From an uncultured Candidatus Rokubacteria bacterium (GTDB taxonomy: Bacteria > Methylomirabilota > Methylomirabilia > Rokubacteriales > CSP1-6): a stretch of DNA of 64,000 nt. The notes beneath the pieces are model-generated. The model made no database searches and was not told where the DNA came from. It was given only the letters and a program-made list of their open reading frames with translations. Location of the stretch: positions 736,001 to 800,000 of the forward strand of contig CAVYTA010000005.1 of the NCBI GenBank assembly GCA_963771355.1, given 5' to 3'. Positions 12,448 through 20,859 of this stretch are shown here, piece after piece. Numbering within the stretch: the stretch's first letter is position 1; every line of letters starts with the position of its first letter. The position numbers and the translations under genes were made by a program.

Positions 12448-12535
12448 AGCGCCGCGCCCTCCGGCGTGTCAAGGCGGGTCTGAACTACCACCACATCTGG
12501 GGTGGGACGGAGACTCGGGCTACCGCATCTTGAGA

Positions 12536-12573
12536 TTGCCAGCACTCAACACTTGATGTGTAATCAGATTCAC
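12536..12573 (+). promoter_or_regulatory. Sigma70-type promoter of imuA with overlapping near-palindrome (candidate operator)
   Basis: TTGCCA-N17-TGTAAT. GTGTAATCAGATTCAC (12558-12573) overlaps the -10 and start region in an AT-rich stretch. Confidence 0.55.
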
Positions 12574-12597
12574 TCAGCGCGCCCAGGTATCTATTCA

Positions 12598-13245
12598 ATG
12601 GCCATAGCGAAAGAGTCCTTGCCCCCGCCAGGGTGGGGTCTCGAGAGCATCGCCTCCATGCTGGAGGCGTTTCCCCGAGGCCAGCTCAGCGAGATCATCG
12701 GCCCGCGGTCCGCGGGAGGCAGCAGTCTCCTCACCGCGCTCCTGGCCCGGGCGACCGCCGCCGGCGACCTCGTCGCCCTCGTCGACGGCGCCGACGCCTT
12801 CGACCCCGCGGGAGCGGCCGCCGCCGGCGCCGAGCTGCGCTCGCTGTGCTGGGTGCGCGGGGGCGGCCGGCTCGATGCCGCCTGCCGGGCGGCGGAGCTA
12901 CTCGCGCGCTGCGAGGGCTTCGCGTGGGTGGCCCTCGATCTCGCCGCGGACCTGACCGGTCCCGCCCGGATGCCGCCGACGTTCGCGCCGGCCACCTGGA
13001 TACGGCTGCAGCGTGCGGTGCGCGACACGCCCACCCGGCTCATCGTCCATGCCTCGCGGCATCTCGCGGGGAGCGCGGCCGCGCTCGTGCTGGGGGTGGA
13101 GCGGGGGCCGGCGCGCTGGATGGGCTCGCCCCGCCCCCGTCGGCTCGACGGCCTGGGCTCGCGCGTGCGCGTGCTGCGCGCCCGCCCACCGGCTCCCATC
13201 GTGGGAGGGAGCGGGAAGGAATGGGTGATCGCGTGGCGGCTCTGA
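12598..13245 (+). CDS. imuA: ImuA / RecA-like mutagenesis accessory protein
   Basis: FPRGQLSEIIG, degenerate P-loop GPRSAGGSS, ALVDGADAFDP, WIRLQRA. Directly upstream of imuB. Confidence 0.8.
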   Translation: MAIAKESLPPPGWGLESIASMLEAFPRGQLSEIIGPRSAGGSSLLTALLARATAAGDLVALVDGADAFDPAGAAAAGAELRSLCWVRGGGRLDAACRAAELLARCEGFAWVALDLAADLTGPARMPPTFAPATWIRLQRAVRDTPTRLIVHASRHLAGSAAALVLGVERGPARWMGSPRPRRLDGLGSRVRVLRARPPAPIVGGSGKEWVIAWRL

Positions 13246-14750
13246 GGCGGCTCGGCTGTCTCCTCGTGCCCGGCTTCGCCGCCGCGGCGGCGGTGCGGGC
13301 CGAGCCCGCGCTCGCCGGACAGCCGCTGGTCATACTCGACGAGGCGCGTCCCGGGCGGCTGGTGCGCGAGACCAGCGCGGCGGCGCGCGCCCTGGGCATT
13401 GTCCCCGGCATGACGGAGGCGGCGGCGCTGGCGCGGCCGGCCCGCGTGATCTGCCGCGAGCGCGTGGCCGCCCACGAGGCCGCGGCGCAGGCGGCGCTGC
13501 TGGAGGTGGCGCTCGCGCATTCGCCCCGCGTGGAGGAAGGCGGTCCCGGCGAGGTCTATCTCGACACGGCCGGTCTCGGCGCGCTGTTCGGCGACGAGGC
13601 GGCGCTGGCGCGGCGGCTCGCGGCGGCGACGGCCGCGGCGGCCCTGCCCGCGCGGGTGGGCATCGCGGGCAGCCGCGTCGCCGCGCATCTCGCCGCGCGC
13701 TGGGGCGCGGGCGCGGAGTGCGTCCCGCCCGAGGGCGACGCCGCCTATCTCGCTCCCGCGCCGCTGGGGCTGCTGGGTCTGCCCGTGGAGCTGGCGCGAC
13801 GGCTGGAGCGCTGGGGGCTCCGCACCCTCGGCGAGCTCGCGGCCCTGCCCGCGCGCGAGCTCTTCGAACGGCTCGGCGCCGACGGGCCGCGGCTCCAGGC
13901 GCTCGCGCGCGGCGAAGACCCGCGCCCGCTCTTGCCCTGGCGGCCTCCACGCTCCTTCGAGGAGACGCGAGAGCTGGACTGGGCGGCGGACAATCTCGAG
14001 CCGCTCTTCGCCCTCTTCGCCGAGCTGGCCGACCGTGTCTGCGTGCGGCTCGAGGAAGAGGCGCTGGCCGCCGACCTCTTCGAGTGGTCATGCCATGTGG
14101 CGGCCGGGCGTGGGCCGGGGCGCGAGGTGCACGGCTCCTTCGTCCCGCCCGTGCCCACGCGTGAAGCGGGCGCGGTGATGGCCGTGCTCCGCGCCACCCT
14201 CGCGGCCACCCCGCCCACCGGCGCGGTGACGGCGCTCATGCTCCGCGCCCAGCCGGTGCGTGTGCTCGCGGCGCAGGAGCCGCTGGCGGGCGAGCCGCGG
14301 CCGAGCCCGCGCGCGCTGGCCGAGACCATCGCGCGGGTCATCGGGGTGGTGGGCGCCGGCAATCTCGGCGTGCCCGTGCTCCTCGACACGCATCGCCCCG
14401 ACGCGATCCGCCTCGAGCCCCTCAATGTCCTCGCCCAGGCCCTCGCCCATGTGCCTTCTCCGCCCGGAGGAGGAAACGGGCCGGGGGAGGGCGGAGTCCT
14501 CGCCCTCCGCCGGCTCCGCCCGCCGCGGCCGGCGCAGGTGCGTCTCGTGGGCGGCCGGCCGGTGCATCTTCGCTCCGGTGGGCTCGCGGGCGCCATCGTG
14601 GCCAGCGCGGGGCCGTGGCGCGTATCGGGCGAGTGGTGGCGGGAGAGCCGCTGGGGCGCGGATGAATGGGACGTGGAGCTCACCGACGGCACGCTCGGCC
14701 GCCTGGCCCATGACGGCTCCGCCTGGGTGCTCGAAGGCGTGTACGACTAG
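13233..14750 (+). CDS. imuB: ImuB, Y-family polymerase-like protein (catalytically inactive type)
   Basis: ARALGIVPGM, SPRVE...VYLD, RWGLRTLGELAALP, C-terminal GPWRVSGEWW...EGVYD. Confidence 0.85.
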   Translation: MAALRRLGCLLVPGFAAAAAVRAEPALAGQPLVILDEARPGRLVRETSAAARALGIVPGMTEAAALARPARVICRERVAAHEAAAQAALLEVALAHSPRVEEGGPGEVYLDTAGLGALFGDEAALARRLAAATAAAALPARVGIAGSRVAAHLAARWGAGAECVPPEGDAAYLAPAPLGLLGLPVELARRLERWGLRTLGELAALPARELFERLGADGPRLQALARGEDPRPLLPWRPPRSFEETRELDWAADNLEPLFALFAELADRVCVRLEEEALAADLFEWSCHVAAGRGPGREVHGSFVPPVPTREAGAVMAVLRATLAATPPTGAVTALMLRAQPVRVLAAQEPLAGEPRPSPRALAETIARVIGVVGAGNLGVPVLLDTHRPDAIRLEPLNVLAQALAHVPSPPGGGNGPGEGGVLALRRLRPPRPAQVRLVGGRPVHLRSGGLAGAIVASAGPWRVSGEWWRESRWGADEWDVELTDGTLGRLAHDGSAWVLEGVYD

Positions 14751-14760
14751 AGGCGTGAAC

Positions 14761-15912
14761 ATGGACATCCGGCCCTTCCAGGTGAATATCCCCCAGCCCG
14801 CGCTCGACGACCTGCGGGCCCGTCTCGCCCGCACCCGCTGGCCGGACGAGGTTCTCGCCGCGGGCTGGGACTACGGCGCGAACCTCGCCTACATGCGGGA
14901 GCTCGTGACGTACTGGGGCAGCGGCTTCGACTGGCGGCGGGAGGAGCGGGCAATGAACGCGCTGCCGCACTTCCGAGCCGACGTGGAGGGGGTGGGCATT
15001 CACTTCATCCACTTGCGGGGCCGGGGGCCGGCCCCGATGCCGCTTCTCATCACGCATGGCTGGCCGAGCTCCTTCGTCGAGATGCTCGCACTGATCCCCC
15101 TTCTCGCCGATCCCGGCGCTCACGGGGGCGATCCCGCCGATGCCTTCGACGTGGTGGTGCCGTCTGTGCCCGGCTTCGGATTCTCGGACCGGCCGGGGCG
15201 GGGCATGACGCGGAGCCGCGTGGCGGGACTCTGGGCGCGGCTCATGGACGGCCTGGGCTATGCGCGCTACGTCGCGCACGGCAACGATATCGGCGCGGTG
15301 ATCTCGGGCTGGCTGGCCCACGACGCGCCCGAGCGGCTGATCGCGCTGCACACCTTGATGCCGACCTTCCCGTCGCCGGTGATCGGCGCGGACGTCCAGC
15401 CCCTCACCGAGGCAGAGCGCGCCTTCGCCGCGCTCCAGGCGCGCTGGATGCAGGACGAGGGCGGCTACAACCTGATCCAGGAAACCCGGCCGCAAACCCT
15501 GGCCTATGGCCTCCACGATTCCCCCGCCGGGCTGGCCGCGTGGATCGTGGAGAAGTGGCGCGGGTGGACCGATCCCGCCGGGGAGGTGGAGCGCTACTTC
15601 TCGAGAGATCTTCTCCTCGCCAATATCACGCTCTACTGGCTCACCGAGACCGTCAATGCCGCGAACCGCTCGTACTACGAGCGGGCGCGCGAGCCGCGCT
15701 CGATCACGACACGCATCGCCGTCCCCACCGGAGTGGCCCTCACCACGGAGGACATCCAGCGCCCGCCACGGGAGCGCGCCGAGCGGAGCTACGCCGACAT
15801 CCGCCGCTGGGTGGAATTCCCGCGCGGCGGCCACTTCATCGCCGCCGAGGAGCCGGCGCTCCTGGCCGCGGAGCTGCGGGAATTCTTCCGGCCGTTCCGG
15901 ACCGTGCGCTAG
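14761..15912 (+). CDS. Epoxide hydrolase (microsomal EH-type alpha/beta hydrolase)
   Basis: EHN domain (DDLRARLARTRWP), HGWPSS, GNDIGA nucleophile, GGHFIAAEEP. Confidence 0.92.
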   Translation: MDIRPFQVNIPQPALDDLRARLARTRWPDEVLAAGWDYGANLAYMRELVTYWGSGFDWRREERAMNALPHFRADVEGVGIHFIHLRGRGPAPMPLLITHGWPSSFVEMLALIPLLADPGAHGGDPADAFDVVVPSVPGFGFSDRPGRGMTRSRVAGLWARLMDGLGYARYVAHGNDIGAVISGWLAHDAPERLIALHTLMPTFPSPVIGADVQPLTEAERAFAALQARWMQDEGGYNLIQETRPQTLAYGLHDSPAGLAAWIVEKWRGWTDPAGEVERYFSRDLLLANITLYWLTETVNAANRSYYERAREPRSITTRIAVPTGVALTTEDIQRPPRERAERSYADIRRWVEFPRGGHFIAAEEPALLAAELREFFRPFRTVR

Positions 15913-15914
15913 TC

Positions 15915-16820
15915 ATGGCCCGCCCCGCCATCACCGTCCTCGTCACCGACATGGACAATACCCTCTTCGACTGGCTCGAGATGTGGCGCACCGCCTTCGG
16001 CGCCATGCTCGATCGGCTCGTGATCGATAGCGGCCTCCCGCGCGAGACCCTGGAGGAAGAGCTGAGCGCGGTGCACCGGGAGCACGGCACCACGGAGTAC
16101 GCCTTCGCCATCCAGGCGCTGCCCTCGCTGCGCGCCCGCCATCCCGGGGAGGACCTGCCCACGCGCTACGCCGCCGCCATCAAGGCCTATCGCACCGCGC
16201 GCCGCGGAACGCTAAAGCTCTATCCCGGCGTCCTCGACACCCTGCGGGCGCTGCGGGCGGCAGGGACGCGGGTGGTGGCGTACACGGAGTCGCGCGCCTT
16301 CCACGCGAGCTACCGCGCCCGCGCGCTCGGTCTGGACGGTGTGCTCGACGCCCTCTATTCGCCCCCCGATCACGCGCTGCCCGACGGGCTCCGCCTCGAT
16401 GACATCCGCCGCTACCCCCCGGAGCACTACGGCTTCCGGCACACCGTGCACCGGCACACGCGGGAAGGCGCGTGGAAGCCCGACGCCGCGGTGCTGCTCG
16501 ACCTGCTGCGCGGCGACCTCGGGGCCGAGCCCGGCGAGGCGGTGTACGTGGGGGACAGCCTGGTCAAGGACGTGGCCATGGCGCAGGCGGCGGGAGTGGC
16601 CGACGTGTTCGCCCGCTACGGCGACGTCCGCGGCCGGCCCGGCTACGATCTGTTGCGACGGGTGTCCCACTGGACGCCCGCCATGCTCGCCGGCGCGGAG
16701 CGCCTCGCGGAAGCCGACGTGCGCCCCACCCATGTGCTGAAGTCCGGCTTCGCCGAGCTCCTCGACCTGATCGAGCCGCGCCGCTTCACCCCGCGCCGCG
16801 GTGACGGTCAGTCGGAATAG
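15915..16820 (+). CDS. HAD family hydrolase
   Basis: Motif I TDMDNTL, KPD, motif IV YVGDSLVKDV. Confidence 0.85.
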   Translation: MARPAITVLVTDMDNTLFDWLEMWRTAFGAMLDRLVIDSGLPRETLEEELSAVHREHGTTEYAFAIQALPSLRARHPGEDLPTRYAAAIKAYRTARRGTLKLYPGVLDTLRALRAAGTRVVAYTESRAFHASYRARALGLDGVLDALYSPPDHALPDGLRLDDIRRYPPEHYGFRHTVHRHTREGAWKPDAAVLLDLLRGDLGAEPGEAVYVGDSLVKDVAMAQAAGVADVFARYGDVRGRPGYDLLRRVSHWTPAMLAGAERLAEADVRPTHVLKSGFAELLDLIEPRRFTPRRGDGQSE

Positions 16821-17053
16821 AAGTGTGGGCGCAGATCTTCTTCGGGGACGAAGCGAGCCGCCTGGCGAAAGATCGCCCGGCACGTACCGGTGTCGAGCTC
16901 GGGATGGGAAGGGACAGTCAGCGTCTGTGTCGTTCCGTCGGTCAGGACACGACGGAGCTTGATGTGGCTTCCACGTTGTGAGTGAACGGTGAAACCGAAG
17001 CGACCGAGAATTACGACGATCTCCGCGCCAGAGAGGCGCCGGAGCCTAGGCAT
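16808..17053 (-). CDS. hicA: HicA family toxin
   Basis: GFTVHSQRGSHIKLRR...TVPSHPELDTGT, with the conserved GSH. Confidence 0.9.
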   Translation of the reverse strand: MPRLRRLSGAEIVVILGRFGFTVHSQRGSHIKLRRVLTDGTTQTLTVPSHPELDTGTCRAIFRQAARFVPEEDLRPHFYSD

Positions 17054-17279
17054 GCGTCGGCAGGAGCTCCATGGTGACGAGGACGGTCGGGTTCGGTACG
17101 AGACCGAGGGATGCGAGATCTTCGCCGTCGAGATGGAGAGCGACGGCTTCCCCGAGGTTCTTCGTTACCTGATCCAGCGTCTGTCCCTGGGTGACGACCG
17201 GGATCTCGAGGCATTCGGCCACGTACCCCGACTGCTCGCCCTGACGGATCACCGCCTTGATCGTGTGCTGGAGCATCAA
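17046..17279 (-). CDS. hicB: HicB family antitoxin (short form, no DNA-binding domain)
   Basis: GYVAECLEIPVVTQGQTLDQVTKNLGEAVALHL. Overlaps hicA. Confidence 0.88.
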   Translation of the reverse strand: MMLQHTIKAVIRQGEQSGYVAECLEIPVVTQGQTLDQVTKNLGEAVALHLDGEDLASLGLVPNPTVLVTMELLPTHA

Positions 17280-17321: not shown

Positions 17322-20300
17322 ATGTTCGTCGAGCTGCATGCCCGCAGTGCCTTCAGCTTCCTCGAGGCGGCGGCTTTGCCCGAGGAGCTGGCCGAGCGGG
17401 CGGCCGCGCTCGAGCAGCCGGCGCTGGCCCTCCTCGACCGCGACGGGCTCTACGGCGCGCCGCGCTTCTACCGCGCGGCGACCCGCGTCGGAATCAACCC
17501 CTTGGTCGGAGCGGAGGTCACGCTGGCGGAGGGCGGCCGGCTGCCGCTGCTGGTGGAAAGCCCCGAGGGCTATCAGAACCTCTGTCGGCTCCTCACCAAG
17601 ATGAAGATGCGCGCCTCCTCCAAGGACACCGGGGCGGCTACGCTCGACGAGATCGCCGAGCACGCGGTGGGGCTGGTCTGCCTCACGGCGGGCGAGGACG
17701 GGCCCGTGGCGCTGGCGCTGGAGGCCGGCGGCGCCCCCGCGGCGCGCGCGCTGCTCGACCGGCTCACCGGCGTCTTCGGCCGCGGCAATGTCTATGCCGA
17801 GCTGCAACGCCACTTCCGCCGCGCGGAGGAAGCGCGCAACGAGTGGCTGCGGGGGGCGGCGGCCACGCTCGGCCTGCCGCTCCTCGCCACCAATGCGCCC
17901 GCGCATGGCCGAGCGCGGCCAGCGGCCGCTCCTCGACGCGCTCACCTGCATCCGGCATCACACCACCCTGGATCGCGCGGGCCGGCTCCTCGCCGACAAT
18001 AGCGAGCGCCATCTGCGGCCTACGCGCGAGGTGGAGCGCCTCTTCGCCGACTGCCCCGACGCGGTGGCCAATAGCGGCGAGCTCGCCATCCGTCTGGCCT
18101 TCACTCTCAAGCACCTCGGCTACCGCTTTCCCGACTATCCGCTGCCGCCGGGGCAGACGCCCATCGGCCTCCTTCGCCACCTCGCCGAGGAGGGACGCCG
18201 GGCGCGCTATGGCGACGGCGAGCTCGCGGAGCGGGCGCGGCAGCAGATCGCGCGCGAGCTGGAGCTCATCGGCCGGCTCGACCTTCCCGGCTATTTCCTC
18301 ATCGTCTGGGACATCGTCCAGTTCTGCCGCGCCGAGGGCATTCTCGTGCAGGGGCGGGGCTCGGCGGCGAACAGCGCCGTCTGCTACGCGCTCGGCATCA
18401 CCGCGGTGGACGCGGTGGGCATGGATCTGCTCTTCGAGCGCTTCCTCTCCGAGGAGCGTGGGGAGTGGCCGGACATCGACCTCGACCTGCCCAGCGGAGA
18501 CCGGCGCGAGCGGGTGATCCAGTACGTCTACGAGCGGTACGGCCGTCTGGGCGCCGCCATGACCGCCAACGTCATCACGTACCGTGGTCGGCTGGCGGCG
18601 CGCGAGGTCGGCAAGGTGCTGGGCCTGCCCGCCGACCTCATCGAGCGGCTGAGCGGGTTCGTGACGGACTTCGAGTTCAAGGATCCGGGCGACACCCTCC
18701 TCGCGCACCTCGCCGCCGCCGGCTGCGATCCCGCCCACCCGCGCATGCAGGTGTTCGCCGCGCTCTGGTCGGCCATCCAGGATCGCCCGCGCCACCTCGG
18801 TCAACACTCGGGCGGCATGGTGATCTGCCAGGGACGGCTCGACGCGGTGGTGCCGCTCGAGCCCGCCACCATGCCCGGCCGCTCCGTCGTCCAGTGGGAC
18901 AAGGACGACTGCGGCGCGTTGGGCATCGTGAAAGTCGATCTCCTGGGGCTCGGTATGATGTCGCTGCTCCAGGACGCGATCGAGATGATCTCCGCGCGGG
19001 GCGGCGCCGTGGACCTGGCTCATCTGCCGCCCGACGATCGGGCCGTCTACGACATGCTGAAGCGCGCCGACACCGTCGGCGTCTTCCAGGTGGAGAGCCG
19101 GGCGCAGATGGCGACGCTGCCACGCCTGCGCCCCGAGCGTTTCTACGACCTCGTGGTGCAGGTGGCCATCATCCGGCCGGGGCCCATCGTGGGCGACATG
19201 GTGCACCCCTATCTCCGCCGCCGCGCCGGCCGCGAGCCGGTGACAGTGCCGCATCCGACGCTCGAGCCCATCCTGCGGCGCACGCTCGGCGTGCCGCTCT
19301 TCCAGGAGCAATTGCTCCGCATGGCCATGGCCACCGCCGGCTTCACCGGGGGCGAGGCCGAAGAGCTGCGCCGCGCGCTGGGCTTCAAGCGCGCCGCCCG
19401 CGCCATGGCCGACATCGAGGGCAAGCTCCGCGCCGGCATGGCGCGCCAGGGCATCACCGGCGAGCCGGCGGAGGCCATCATCCGTTCCATCACCGCCTTC
19501 GCGCTGTATGGCTTCCCCGAATGCGTGGTCGGCGAGACGCGGGTGATCGACGCCGATACGGGGCGCCGTGTAAAGATCGAGGACGTGGTGGCCGGGCGGG
19601 TCCCGCTCACCCACACGCTGGCCTGTGATGAAGACCTGCGCATCCGCAAGCGGCGCGTGCTCGGCGCGACGGCCAGCGGCCAGCGGATGGTTTACCGTGT
19701 TCGTACCGCGCTGGGCCGCGAGGTGACGGCCACCGCCGAGCACCCGCTCCTGACCCTGGACGGCTGGCGTCCCCTCGGCCACCTGCGTGTGGGGGATGAC
19801 ATCGCCGTGGTCTCCGATCCCATGCCGGATGCGAAGGTCGATTGGGATCCCGTCACCGCGATCGAGCCGGTGGGAATGCAGGAGACCTACGATCTCTCCG
19901 TCGAAGAGGACCATAACTTCATCGCCAATGACGTCGTCGTGCATAACTCGCATGCGGCCAGCTTCGCGCTCCTGGCCTATGCCAGCACTTACCTCAAGGC
20001 GCATCACCCGGCGGCCTTCTACGCGGCGCTGCTCAACAACCAGCCCATGGGCTTCTACCACCCCGCCACCATCGTGCGAGACGCCCAGCGTCACGGGCAG
20101 GTGATCCGCCCCATCGACGTCACGTGCTCGGGCTGGCTCTGCGCCATCGAGACGGACAGCGCGGTGCGGCTCGGACTCCGCTACGTGAAGGGATTGCGTG
20201 AAGATGCGGGCAAGCGCCTCGAGGCGGCGCGCCTCACGCGCCCCTTCGACTCCGTCGCCGATCTCGTGCGCCGCGGCGACGTCAATCGCGAGGAGCTGGC

Positions 20301-20859
20301 GCGCCTGGGCGAGGTGGGCGCGCTCGGCGGGCTGGGCCTCGAGCGGCGCCAGGCGCTCTGGGAAGGGGAGCGGGCCATCCGGCCGACGGGGCCGCTCTAT
20401 GCCGGGTTGCCCGATCCGCCGTCCCCCTCGCCGCTGCGGCCCATGACGGAGGAGGAAGAGGTGGTGGCCGACTACGCGGGCACGGGCCTGTCGGTGGGGC
20501 CGCACCCGATGGCACTGCGGCGCGCCGGGCTCGCCAAGCGGGGCGTGACGCGCGCCGCCGAGCTCGCCGATCGGCCGCATGGGAGCGCGGTGCGCGTGGC
20601 GGGAGCGGTGGTGGTGCGCCAGCGCCCGGGTACCGCGAAGGGCTTCGTCTTCCTCAACCTCGAGGACGAGACCGGCCTCATCAACGTGATCGTGCGCCCG
20701 CAGCACTTCGCCCGCTACCGCGAGCTCCTCACCGGCGAGCCCTTTCTCCTCGTGGACGGACGCCTCCAGCACGAGGACGGGGTGATCTCGGTGCGCGCCG
20801 ATCGCCTCCAGGCGCTCGCGGTCCGCCTGGGCGCCTTGCCCTCGCACGACTTCCACTGA
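17322..20859 (+). CDS. dnaE2: Error-prone DNA polymerase DnaE2 (ImuC) containing an intein; frameshift near 17899
   Basis: PHP domain FVELHARSAFSFL, GRGSAANSAVCY, PDIDLD, RQRPGTAKG and C-terminal SHDFH (S[RH]DF[HR] type, typical of DnaE2). Confidence 0.93.
19522..19947 (+). mobile_element. Mini-intein (142 aa, no homing endonuclease) in DnaE2
   Basis: Starts CVVGETRV (block A), has TAEHPLL (block B TxxH) and YDLSVEEDHNFIANDVVVHN (blocks F/G), with +1 Ser. Removing it restores YGFPE|SHAASF. Confidence 0.95.

Follow-up and report, generated by a model that had tools for sequence, protein, structure and literature searches.

The window (the whole stretch of 64,000 nucleotides analyzed here) carries on its forward strand dnaE2, a DNA polymerase gene that is split by a mini-intein, with imuA-like and imuB genes upstream. 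The genes are laid out as follows, with the intein itself, which lies between the two exteins, given further below:

12502..13245, + strand: imuA-like gene with a RecA fold (Pfam RecA PF00154, E 2.3e-7; 31 bits, cut-off 27); the coordinates are the extent of the open reading frame, and the start codon is provisional
13221..14750, + strand: imuB, Y-family polymerase-like (Pfam IMS PF00817, E 5e-18; translation), with the ATG of MGDRVAAL as its inferred start
17322..17900, + strand: 5' part of dnaE2 with the PHP domain, MFVELHARSAFSFLE...LLATNAP, reading frame 1 (translation; the first 194 residues are 96% identical to the intact 1178-aa homologue P0003)
17898..17900, + strand: CCC run in which a single surplus C puts dnaE2 out of frame (G002 orthologue and public-run contigs)
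17902..19521, + strand: remainder of the dnaE2 N-extein, i.e., palm, thumb and finger up to FALYGFPE, reading frame 2 (Pfam DNA_pol3_alpha, E 5.9e-74; DNA_pol3_finger, E 1.5e-50)
19948..20859, + strand: dnaE2 C-extein, SHAASFAL...SHDFH and the stop codon, with HhH and OB fold (Pfam HHH_6 and tRNA_anti-codon; translation)

Scores against protein family models identify the host as the error-prone polymerase DnaE2/ImuC: it reaches 1092 bits against NF004225 (error-prone DNA polymerase; cut-off 939) but 513 bits against the DnaE1 equivalog NF004226, under the cut-off of 1002. Epoxide hydrolase, HAD and hicAB genes lie between the imuA-like/imuB pair (12502-14750) and dnaE2, and in two relatives, G020 and G010, a tblastn search places imuB directly upstream of dnaE2. 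An open reading frame of 1030 aa on the opposite strand (17764-20856) was set aside as a high-GC artefact, with every domain match on the + strand. RNA-library contigs span both intein junctions (X16, 19486-19869; X17, 19744-20108), but we do not count them as proof of transcription because DNA may occur in such libraries. At third codon positions the intein has a GC content (GC3) of 0.838, and the minimum over all 142-codon windows of the exteins is 0.887, a difference in keeping with a mobile element.

In the assembly, the dnaE2 reading frame is not intact, and the two gene halves are in different frames. The window reads CCC at 17898-17900, where the G002 orthologue (99% nucleotide identity) reads CC and where the contigs of all four DNA runs (four studies) and of the one RNA-library run covering the site have one base fewer; one DNA-run contig of 281 nt is identical to the window apart from this gap. 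Because all five public runs covering the site are without the extra base, the extra C is probably an assembly error. Across the break, intact homologues read LLATNAPR(M/L)AE...RPLLDALTCIR, and homologues with 97% identity and lower have an intact frame of 1178 aa, which is exactly what deleting one base would give here. If the extra C were real, dnaE2 of this strain would be a pseudogene: translation would stop at 18002 after ~226 residues, exteins and intein would not be produced as one protein, and the intein would never be made in a full-length precursor. The CCC of the window itself and the separate frames speak for this, none of the public runs compared is established as the source of the window assembly, and dnaE2 is broken in some relatives, with several breaks of the frame and TGA codons within it in G010 and an intein without its block B region in G026. 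However, the extra base is absent from every near-identical sequence (the G002 orthologue, the DNA-run contigs and the RNA-library contig) and lies in a homopolymer run, the more distant homologues are intact, and the 1084 codons downstream are open and without further disabling changes. We consider a pseudogene rather unlikely. Programmed frameshifting at 17898 was dismissed, as close relatives are without the base and no slippery heptamer was seen at GCGCCCGCG. For annotation, dnaE2 is best read as a single 1178-codon gene with an intein, and the frameshift is doubtful.

Translation of 19522-19947 gives 142 residues without a stop, beginning CVVGETRV and ending VVVHN, with FALYGFPE before and SHAASFAL after. 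The sequence-only reading had described a 142-codon in-frame insert with Cys1, TxxH, a terminal His-Asn and Ser+1, and the translation bears out each of these. The intein and its motifs are:

19522..19947, + strand: mini-intein of 142 residues, a class-1 HINT splicing domain free of endonuclease (translation, HMMs, PDB matches, model)
19522..19524, + strand: codon of Cys1, the block A nucleophile (translation; invariant in 36/36 aligned DnaE2 mini-inteins)
19732..19743, + strand: block B, T71-A-E-H74 (translation; T71 and H74 invariant in 36/36)
19810..19842, + strand: linker VSDPMPDAKVD, 11 residues, where congeners have a LAGLIDADG endonuclease domain of ~281 residues (alignment with the G004 and G007 inteins)
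19891..19914, + strand: the region D124...H131, which we take to be block F (translation; each of the two residues kept in 90% or more of the 36 sequences)
19942..19950, + strand: block G His141-Asn142 and Ser+1 of the C-extein (H141 and N142 invariant in 36/36, Ser+1 nearly invariant)

A second conserved cysteine, Cys35, is present in at least 90% of the 36 aligned DnaE2 mini-inteins. The check with intein HMMs proposed in the sequence-only reading gave scores over the cut-off for all three profiles: Pfam PF14890 Intein_splicing (E 4e-18; 66.1 bits, cut-off 35.8), TIGR01445 intein_Nterm (53 bits, cut-off 24.5) and TIGR01443 intein_Cterm (33.2 bits, cut-off 15.6). In a phmmer search of the PDB, DnaB and RecA mini-inteins match the insert with E values of 3e-20 to 1e-16, and by these scores the intein match is far above chance level. 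An AlphaFold2 model of the insert (pLDDT 97, pTM 0.89) has as its best Foldseek match the splicing domain of the Mtu RecA intein, 3ifj (TM 0.92, rmsd 1.7 A). Pfam finds the splicing domain PF14890 only, and no endonuclease domain, in the 142-residue insert; together with the 11-residue linker at the endonuclease position, this agrees with the earlier claim that a homing endonuclease is missing. The boundaries are exact because in relatives seven DnaE2 loci free of the intein read uninterrupted across the site, YGFPESHAASFAL in six and YGFPEAHAASFAL in G011, with the pattern YGFPE[S/A]HAASFAL. These loci and the flanking residues also uphold the claim that the insert splits the YGFPE|SHA finger motif; the insertion point is between Glu and Ser, equivalent to K758|S759 of E. 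coli DnaE in an alignment. Sequence and model thus confirm 19522-19947 as a genuine class-1 mini-intein in DnaE2.

A precursor DnaE2 whose finger motif is still interrupted by the intein would be inactive. In the predicted splicing pathway, Cys1 would undergo an N-S acyl shift, the thioester would be passed on to Ser+1, Asn142 would cyclize with the aid of His141, and an O-N shift would link YGFPE to SHAAS, giving a normal polymerase of 1036 residues. In six pairwise comparisons, dN/dS was 0.11-0.34 for the intein and 0.09-0.45 for the flanking exteins, and these codon comparisons show purifying selection acting on intein and exteins alike. Intact catalytic residues and purifying selection are the two grounds on which we infer constitutive splicing, and the intein is likely active in splicing as predicted. 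It is conceivable that loss of the endonuclease by internal deletion harmed the fold, in which case the mini-intein would be splicing-dead and DnaE2 permanently interrupted and non-functional even in the correct frame; the 385-aa intein of the relative G026, which has lost its block B region, lends this some color. However, the catalytic residues are all present in the window copy and invariant across the 36 mini-inteins, the model shows the whole HINT fold and superimposes to 1.7 A on an engineered, splicing-competent Mtu RecA mini-intein, and dN/dS is far under 1 for intein and exteins, unlike in a dead gene. We therefore regard a dead intein as extremely improbable.

How is this intein distributed? 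Among 41 related genomes, nine have an intein at the DnaE2 site, of which five are mini forms, two are full forms of 423/424 aa, one is the 385-aa form of G026, and one is large and broken; most of the remaining genomes have an intein-free DnaE2. The survey of dnaE2 orthologues called for by the sequence-only reading turned up all of the main states within one genus, at the same HAD-dnaE2-molybdopterin locus. Here, alleles are intein-free in G001, G006 and contig 10 of G002, carry LAGLIDADG inteins of 423/424 aa in G004 and G007, and carry mini forms (142/143 aa) in G000, contig 13 of G002 and G003. We considered whether the two dnaE2 copies of G002 are paralogues and dismissed this; their flanking genes are the same, so the bin is composite and the copies are alleles of a single locus. 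The public runs that contain the intein form also contain joints without it (19521 to 19948/19951).

Beyond these relatives, 54 of 251 species genomes of the phylum match the intein, 51 of them with an identity of at least 55%. The 54 comprise 32 that are contiguous, one that is nearly so (query 1-132), 17 that are N-terminal only with a large insert next to them, one fragment and three distant ones. From the best 120 of 500 database matches we extracted 116 DnaE2 inteins, all at YGFPE|C...HN|SH, with sizes of 137-425 aa: 71 at 163 or less, 7 at 193-224, 11 at 320-403 and 27 at 422-425. This gradation of sizes, from 425 down to 137 aa, is a decay series. DnaE2 inteins at GFPE|C with 56-60% identity are also found, among the matches listed, in one MAG each of the Gammaproteobacteria and the Kofleriaceae; the contig search behind such cross-phylum examples covered at least 600 stretches with three confirmed, and it serves as a source of examples, not as an estimate of distribution.

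The mini form appears to be the larger form minus its endonuclease. Excluding the gap, it has 77% identity to the 423/424-aa inteins of the congeners, and the absent part is exactly the endonuclease block, in which G004 and G007 match PF14528 LAGLIDADG_3 (E 2.8e-15). Over the splicing domain, the window mini-intein has 83% and 82% identity to G004 and G007 (132 and 131 aligned codons). Mapped on the splicing-domain tree, the mini versus endonuclease-bearing state needs 27 changes by parsimony, and at least six are forced by well-supported (starred) branches; read from this tree, endonuclease loss has recurred many times among DnaE2 inteins. The intein dS against G004/G007 (0.88-0.91, over only 131-132 codons) exceeds the extein dS (0.44-0.63), which fits horizontal movement of the intein.

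The sequence-only reading had gone further and proposed that the intein could act as a post-translational switch on mutagenesis. In the form considered here, the intein would have been domesticated such that splicing, and with it active DnaE2, is gated by a cue, e.g., redox through a Cys1-Cys35 disulfide, metals, ssDNA, heat or DNA damage. If conditional splicing were true, it would bear on the control of mutagenesis, as a gate opening DnaE2 only under stress in soil Methylomirabilota. Several observations are in keeping with such a role. The intein is in a conserved finger motif where the precursor is presumed inactive, and Cys35 is kept in the mini-inteins and also in the 423/424-aa forms. 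Deep mini-only clades persist under purifying selection (tree, dN/dS), and together with the conserved Cys35 they could equally mark a domesticated conditional intein. In addition, two inteins of other repair proteins, those of Mtb RecA (PMC11377839) and of Pho RadA (PMC4513877), are reported to splice conditionally.

However, Cys35 was not gained on domestication, because it is present in the mobile, endonuclease-bearing forms, and purifying selection on splicing residues is expected for any intein in a needed gene. A host-beneficial element is expected to be retained across a lineage, whereas this one is in 9/41 relatives and matches only 54/251 phylum genomes, with empty sites in congeners. 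Intein-free, full and mini alleles occur together at one locus within a single genus and also share metagenomes, and the size series is continuous with repeated endonuclease loss. Because patchy distribution and endonuclease loss, which had been set beforehand as evidence against a regulatory role, are what we found, the regulatory reading is unsupported. The comparative data make conditional splicing unlikely, and we hold a domesticated switch to be very doubtful. Judged by its distribution, the intein is most likely an ordinary selfish element rather than a mutagenesis switch. Altogether, our reading, to which we give a probability of roughly 0.85, is that the 142-residue mini-intein, predicted to self-splice constitutively, is what is left of a selfish mobile intein after loss of the LAGLIDADG homing endonuclease.

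Where might this remnant have come from? This genome's DnaE1 carries its own intein, of 421 aa, at YGFNK|C...HN|SHA, and the 423-aa DnaE2 intein is collinear with it (30% identity, E 8e-41). The nearest relatives outside DnaE2, among 1.84 billion representatives, are DnaE1-site inteins (41-48%), followed by DnaB inteins (33-36%). In the careful tree, whose rows are matches of a search begun from a DnaE2 intein, DnaE2-site inteins form one clade (100/100) that groups with DnaE1-site inteins, apart from DnaB and P-loop inteins. DnaE1-site inteins need two changes on this tree and never form a single group in 200 bootstrap trees, which shows, for the sequences sampled, the DnaE2 family nested within DnaE1-site inteins; which of these are its exact sister group is supported by a star in the quick tree only, not in the careful one. 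A DnaE1 intein at the homologous YGFNK|SH site may thus have jumped once into the paralogue DnaE2, a direction that depends on rooting with DnaB and P-loop inteins. The DnaE2 intein would then have spread by homing, also across phyla, and in many lineages, including that of the window, the endonuclease would have been lost by internal deletion. In this history the intein would persist because imprecise loss would destroy the YGFPE|SHA motif. The intein has apparently moved between two paralogous genes at a homologous motif, and both are occupied in this one genome. With its empty, full, partly deleted and mini alleles, the locus illustrates the homing cycle cleanly in nature.

A hot spot for inteins in the finger domain of C-family polymerases was described by Novikova et al. 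in 2016 (PMC4760082). In one supplementary file of that study, "DnaE2" and "error-prone" have zero occurrences, and its list could still hold DnaE2 cases. We found no paper describing a DnaE2/ImuC intein in the literature searched, where the passages seen mention excised inteins or the cyanobacterial split gene only, nor one describing the 423/424-aa DnaE2 inteins of the congeners. Annotation pipelines already label such DnaE2 intein proteins. Against that literature, DnaE2/ImuC is a new host paralogue, but the kind of element is known and this example of it is ordinary: a mobile intein that has decayed, hosted by a replication/repair protein in a hot spot already recognized in C-family polymerases. 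The modest value of the finding lies in the host, in the homing cycle displayed at one locus and in the annotation of dnaE2.

Among the closest known counterparts are the contiguous LAGLIDADG inteins of replicative DnaE1 at YGFNK|SH, which have an exactly homologous insertion point and share Cys1, the HN|S junction and Ser+1 with the window intein. They differ in that the window host is the paralogue DnaE2/ImuC, with YGFPE in place of YGFNK, and in that the window intein has lost its endonuclease and belongs to a separate 100/100 clade. Others are the 423/424-aa DnaE2 inteins of G004, G007 and many Methylomirabilota/Rokubacteria metagenome proteins, with the same gene, site and locus as the window; these retain the ~281-residue endonuclease block with two LAGLIDADG motifs, where the window copy has its 11-residue linker. 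In fold and size, the window intein resembles the Mtu RecA and Ssp/Npu DnaB mini-inteins (3ifj, 2in0, 1mi8, 6frh and 4o1r), which are also class-1 HINT domains of ~140 residues, although in other host proteins and at other sites. These are its best structural matches (TM 0.88-0.92, 32-39% identity). The RecA and Ssp DnaB minis were presumably engineered by endonuclease deletion, whereas the deletion in the window intein is natural. The suggestion that this is a compact intein of biotechnological use looks weak by the same comparison: with a length of 142 aa and the Mtu RecA mini-intein 39% identical to it, the intein is ordinary, the best-matching chains having 137-158 aa.

The cyanobacterial split DnaE intein (Ssp/Npu) likewise has a HINT fold in the same C-family finger motif. 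Its site was claimed to be four residues upstream, and this holds, the native junction of the Npu intein being given as AEY|CFNK in PMC3759424. It is split into two genes, has Cys+1 and resides in the replicative DnaE1, whereas the window intein is contiguous with Ser+1. The two have only 16-24% identity in structural alignment (TM 0.75-0.86), and because of this low identity we do not consider them allelic. Finally, the Mtb RecA (PMC11377839) and Pho RadA (PMC4513877) inteins, which reportedly splice conditionally, lie in DNA-damage-response proteins that need splicing for activity, as DnaE2 would here. Compared with these conditional inteins, the distribution of the window intein favors a selfish element.

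The error-prone polymerase gene dnaE2 (imuC) of the window contains a mini-intein, and the sequence-only reading's observation of it was confirmed in every detail. The main polymerase frame has Pfam matches to DNA_pol3_alpha (E 5.9e-74), the finger domain (E 1.5e-50), HHH_6 and an OB fold, with PF14890 (Intein_splicing) sitting among these domains. In NCBIfam the host is error-prone DNA polymerase NF004225 (1092 bits versus a cut-off of 939), and it scores below the DnaE1 equivalog cut-off.

Features of the window around dnaE2
Upstream of dnaE2: imuA-like gene, RecA fold (domain search)
Upstream of dnaE2: imuB, IMS domain (domain search)
14260-16820, plus strand: epoxide hydrolase gene and HAD hydrolase gene, between imuB and dnaE2
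16808-17277, minus strand: hicA toxin gene (Pfam HicA_toxin, E 3.3e-14) and apparent hicB antitoxin gene
From 17322, plus strand: 5' part of dnaE2, first 193 codons (MFVELHARSAFSFLE...), PHP domain, in another frame than the remainder
17605-20859, plus strand: main part of dnaE2, C-family polymerase frame (Pfam, NCBIfam)
19522-19947, plus strand: mini-intein, 142 residues (translation, HMMs, PDB matches, model)
Downstream of dnaE2: molybdopterin oxidoreductase gene (domain search)

Translation of 19522-19947 gives 142 residues, CVVGETRV...TATAEHPLL...DHNFIANDVVVHN, between exteins (the flanking DnaE2 parts) that read FALYGFPE before the intein and SHAASFAL after it. On their own, these residues match PF14890 (E 4e-18) and exceed the cut-offs of both TIGR01445 and TIGR01443, so the intein/Hint HMM check proposed earlier is positive for all three models. 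Their PDB matches are DnaB and RecA mini-inteins (E 3e-20 to 1e-16), and the AlphaFold2 model (pLDDT 97, from an input alignment of 36 sequences) gives a TM-score of 0.92 and an rmsd of 1.7 Å when superposed with the splicing domain of the Mtu RecA intein. Pfam detects no endonuclease domain within these residues, as the earlier reading had claimed. In relatives, seven DnaE2 loci that lack the intein run straight across the site with an uninterrupted YGFPE[S/A]HAASFAL, so the boundaries of the 142-codon in-frame insertion first proposed are exact. Aligned to E. coli DnaE, the N-extein runs up to 756/757 and the C-extein starts from 758 with Ser-His, which puts the insertion between the equivalents of K758 and S759.

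The dnaE2 frame is broken in the assembly, which was missed in the sequence-only reading. The frame of the 5' part meets a stop at 18002, and the window has one surplus C in its run at 17898-17900 compared with the 99%-identical orthologue of a related genome, G002. Taking this base out gives LLATNAPRMAERGQRPLLDALTCIR, the reading of intact homologues, and a gene of 1178 codons, exactly as long as the 97%-identical database homologue P0003. One base is missing at the same run in contigs of four DNA runs from four studies (4/4; none tied to the source assembly), a 281-nt contig from a public run equals the window sequence except for a one-base gap there, and the sole RNA-library contig across the run is also one base short. 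The surplus C could be a genuine strain-specific frameshift, but set beside these contigs this is unlikely, and we put the probability of an assembly error at roughly four in five. A long opposite-strand ORF over dnaE2 was rejected as a high-GC artefact with no domain support.

In the window's genus, the epoxide hydrolase and HAD hydrolase genes part the imuA-like gene and imuB from dnaE2. In related genomes G020 and G010, imuB adjoins dnaE2 directly upstream, and the mutasome cassette is therefore taken to have been split in the window's genus. The hicA/hicB pair comes after the HAD gene, and only about 44 nt separate it from the dnaE2 start. It is an insertion seen in the lineage of the window's genome (G000) and G002: by tblastn, hicA is present only in the lineage of G000 and G002 contig 13, and is absent from G001, G004, G006, G007 and G002 contig 10.

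By the names of the closest database proteins, the organism belongs to Methylomirabilota / Candidatus Rokubacteria. Among 41 related genomes (G000 included), nine have an intein at the DnaE2 site. Three allelic states are found in the window's genus at one locus, from the HAD gene to the molybdopterin oxidoreductase gene.

Intein alleles at the DnaE2 site
Mini-inteins: G000, 142 aa; G002, 142 aa; G003, 143 aa; G037, 145 aa; G020, 139 aa
Full inteins (with endonuclease): G004, 423 aa; G007, 424 aa
Same locus, mini-intein: G000, G002 contig 13, G003
Same locus, full intein: G004, G007
Same locus, no intein: G001, G006, G002 contig 10

The large inteins bear two LAGLIDADG motifs (PF14528, E 2.8e-15). 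The 385-aa intein of G026 (C256) keeps its endonuclease, but a stretch of about 38 residues with block B (TxxH) is missing from it. Splicing of this intein is predicted to fail, in which case dnaE2 there would stay interrupted. The dnaE2 of G010 (C44), with its large intein, is interrupted by several frame breaks and in-frame TGA codons, and is either a decaying gene or poorly assembled. The two dnaE2 copies of G002 were rejected as paralogues, since both share the same flanks and are thus two alleles in one bin. This bin is probably composite, with the alleles with and without intein on two contigs. On contig 13, a 367-bp insertion (locus L004, 4459-4825) lies just ahead of the last dnaE2 codon and stop, and the 5' part differs from the window by five 1-bp indels. 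The intein-free DnaE2 of G013, G015, G017 and G023 have other gaps, of about 40 to 340 codons, farther downstream in the match near query residues 788-851; such gaps may mark other insertions, and in G023 perhaps another site for an intein.

With a threshold of E 1e-15, the intein has a match in 54 of the phylum's 251 species genomes, and identity is ≥55% in 51 of these. By type, 32 matches are contiguous, one almost so (query 1-132), 17 confined to the N-terminal part with a large insert next, one a fragment and three distant, the last counted irrespective of host gene. Within the window's family, 48 of 158 other genomes match, scattered within genera (e.g., 6/12, 14/21, 4/17). Public runs with the intein allele also hold contigs joining 19521 directly to 19948/19951, i.e., empty sites. 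A search of 5.8 billion proteins (E ≤1e-5) gave 500 matches, and the best 120 yielded 116 inteins, every one at YGFPE/C...HN/SH (slashes mark junctions); the other four are truncated proteins. Lengths of these 116 are 137-163 aa (n=71), 193-224 (n=7), 320-403 (n=11) and 422-425 (n=27). On a quick splicing-domain tree of 130 columns, in which many forks are unresolved, mini and endonuclease-bearing states require 27 changes, and well-supported branches force no fewer than 6 of these. The mini-intein is 77% identical to its congeners' 423/424-aa inteins outside the gap, with an 11-residue linker where those hold about 281 residues. At 0.838, GC3 of the intein is lower than in any 142-codon extein window (0.887-0.951), and intein dS versus G004/G007 (0.88-0.91) is above extein dS (0.44-0.63), both of which hint at an intein history separate from the host gene.

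Altogether, the allele distribution and size series are a textbook homing cycle. The sequence-only reading had proposed a possible switch on mutagenesis and named beforehand, as a pattern that would refute such a role, patchiness with recent endonuclease loss; this is what we find among congeners, across the phylum and in the size series. Empty, endonuclease-bearing and mini alleles coexist among the dnaE2 orthologues it suggested surveying, which speaks against a regulatory role. The comparative data thus lend that role no support, and we consider it improbable.

In 36/36 aligned mini-inteins, C1, T71, H74, H141 and N142 are invariant, and Ser+1, D124 and H131 are nearly so. From these residues we infer canonical class-1 splicing, in which Ser+1 would be the second nucleophile; splicing is predicted to be constitutive. 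A second cysteine, Cys35, is shared by at least 90% of the 36 and also by endonuclease-bearing forms, and would be the only lead towards a putative redox trap. In six pairwise comparisons, dN/dS is low for both intein (0.11-0.34) and flanking exteins (0.09-0.45), indicating purifying selection on polymerase and splicing domain alike.

Both DnaE paralogues of G000 are occupied by inteins at the homologous motif, the second being in the replicative DnaE1.

Contig 6, about 1002623-1003885 (L015:2624-3886), minus strand: DnaE1 intein, 421 aa, LAGLIDADG, YGFNK/CLTADT...AVHN/SHA

This intein aligns collinearly with the 423-aa one of DnaE2 (30% identity, E 8e-41). When the latter was scored against 1.84 billion representatives, the 76 full-length matches of the best 150 examined comprised 3 DnaE2 (53-56% identity), then DnaE1 proteins cut at YGFNK/C...HN/SH (41-48%), and behind these DnaB inteins (33-36%) and P-loop-site inteins. 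The careful tree, by maximum likelihood, has 80 rows (75 of the 76 plus five from loci; one N-terminally truncated row left out); in it, DnaE2-site inteins form one clade (100/100) and group with DnaE1-site inteins, apart from DnaB and P-loop inteins. Two changes are required for the DnaE1-site rows, which form a single group in 0/200 bootstrap trees. With the root assumed on the DnaB side, this tree therefore implies a single jump from DnaE1 to DnaE2, the exact DnaE1 sister group being supported only in the quick tree. Two MAGs from outside Methylomirabilota, one of Gammaproteobacteria and one of Kofleriaceae, have endonuclease-bearing DnaE2 inteins at GFPE/C (56-60% identity to the window's intein, N-terminal part), which indicates that the element crossed phyla.

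A third intein of G000, about 462 aa long and LAGLIDADG-bearing (contig 6, about 2015820-2017205; L028:1821-3206, plus strand), lies in an NAD-dependent epimerase/dehydratase, with GDP_Man_Dehyd and Epimerase matches in Pfam. Its apparent first residue is Ser, with putative boundaries RIFN/SIPGNE...CCHN/TYGPRM.

We found no published description of a DnaE2/ImuC intein in the literature searched; automatic annotation already calls such proteins 'intein/homing endonuclease' or 'LAGLIDADG family homing endonuclease'. In their available text, Timinskas et al. 2013 (PMC3919608) and a 2019 Y-family study (PMC6511836) excise inteins ahead of analysis and say nothing more on them. Novikova et al. 2016 (PMC4760082), in the portion available, count 116 Pol III alpha inteins, lumping DnaE2 with DnaE1, and describe a hot spot of insertion points within a 75-residue finger-domain stretch, of which the split cyanobacterial inteins are one point. 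The window's mini-intein is real and well formed, and its kind is thoroughly known; its host paralogue is apparently undescribed. The cyanobacterial split DnaE intein cited in the earlier reading is placed as stated there: the native Npu DnaE junction, given as AEY/CFNK in the available text of PMC3759424, is four residues upstream of the DnaE2 intein site.
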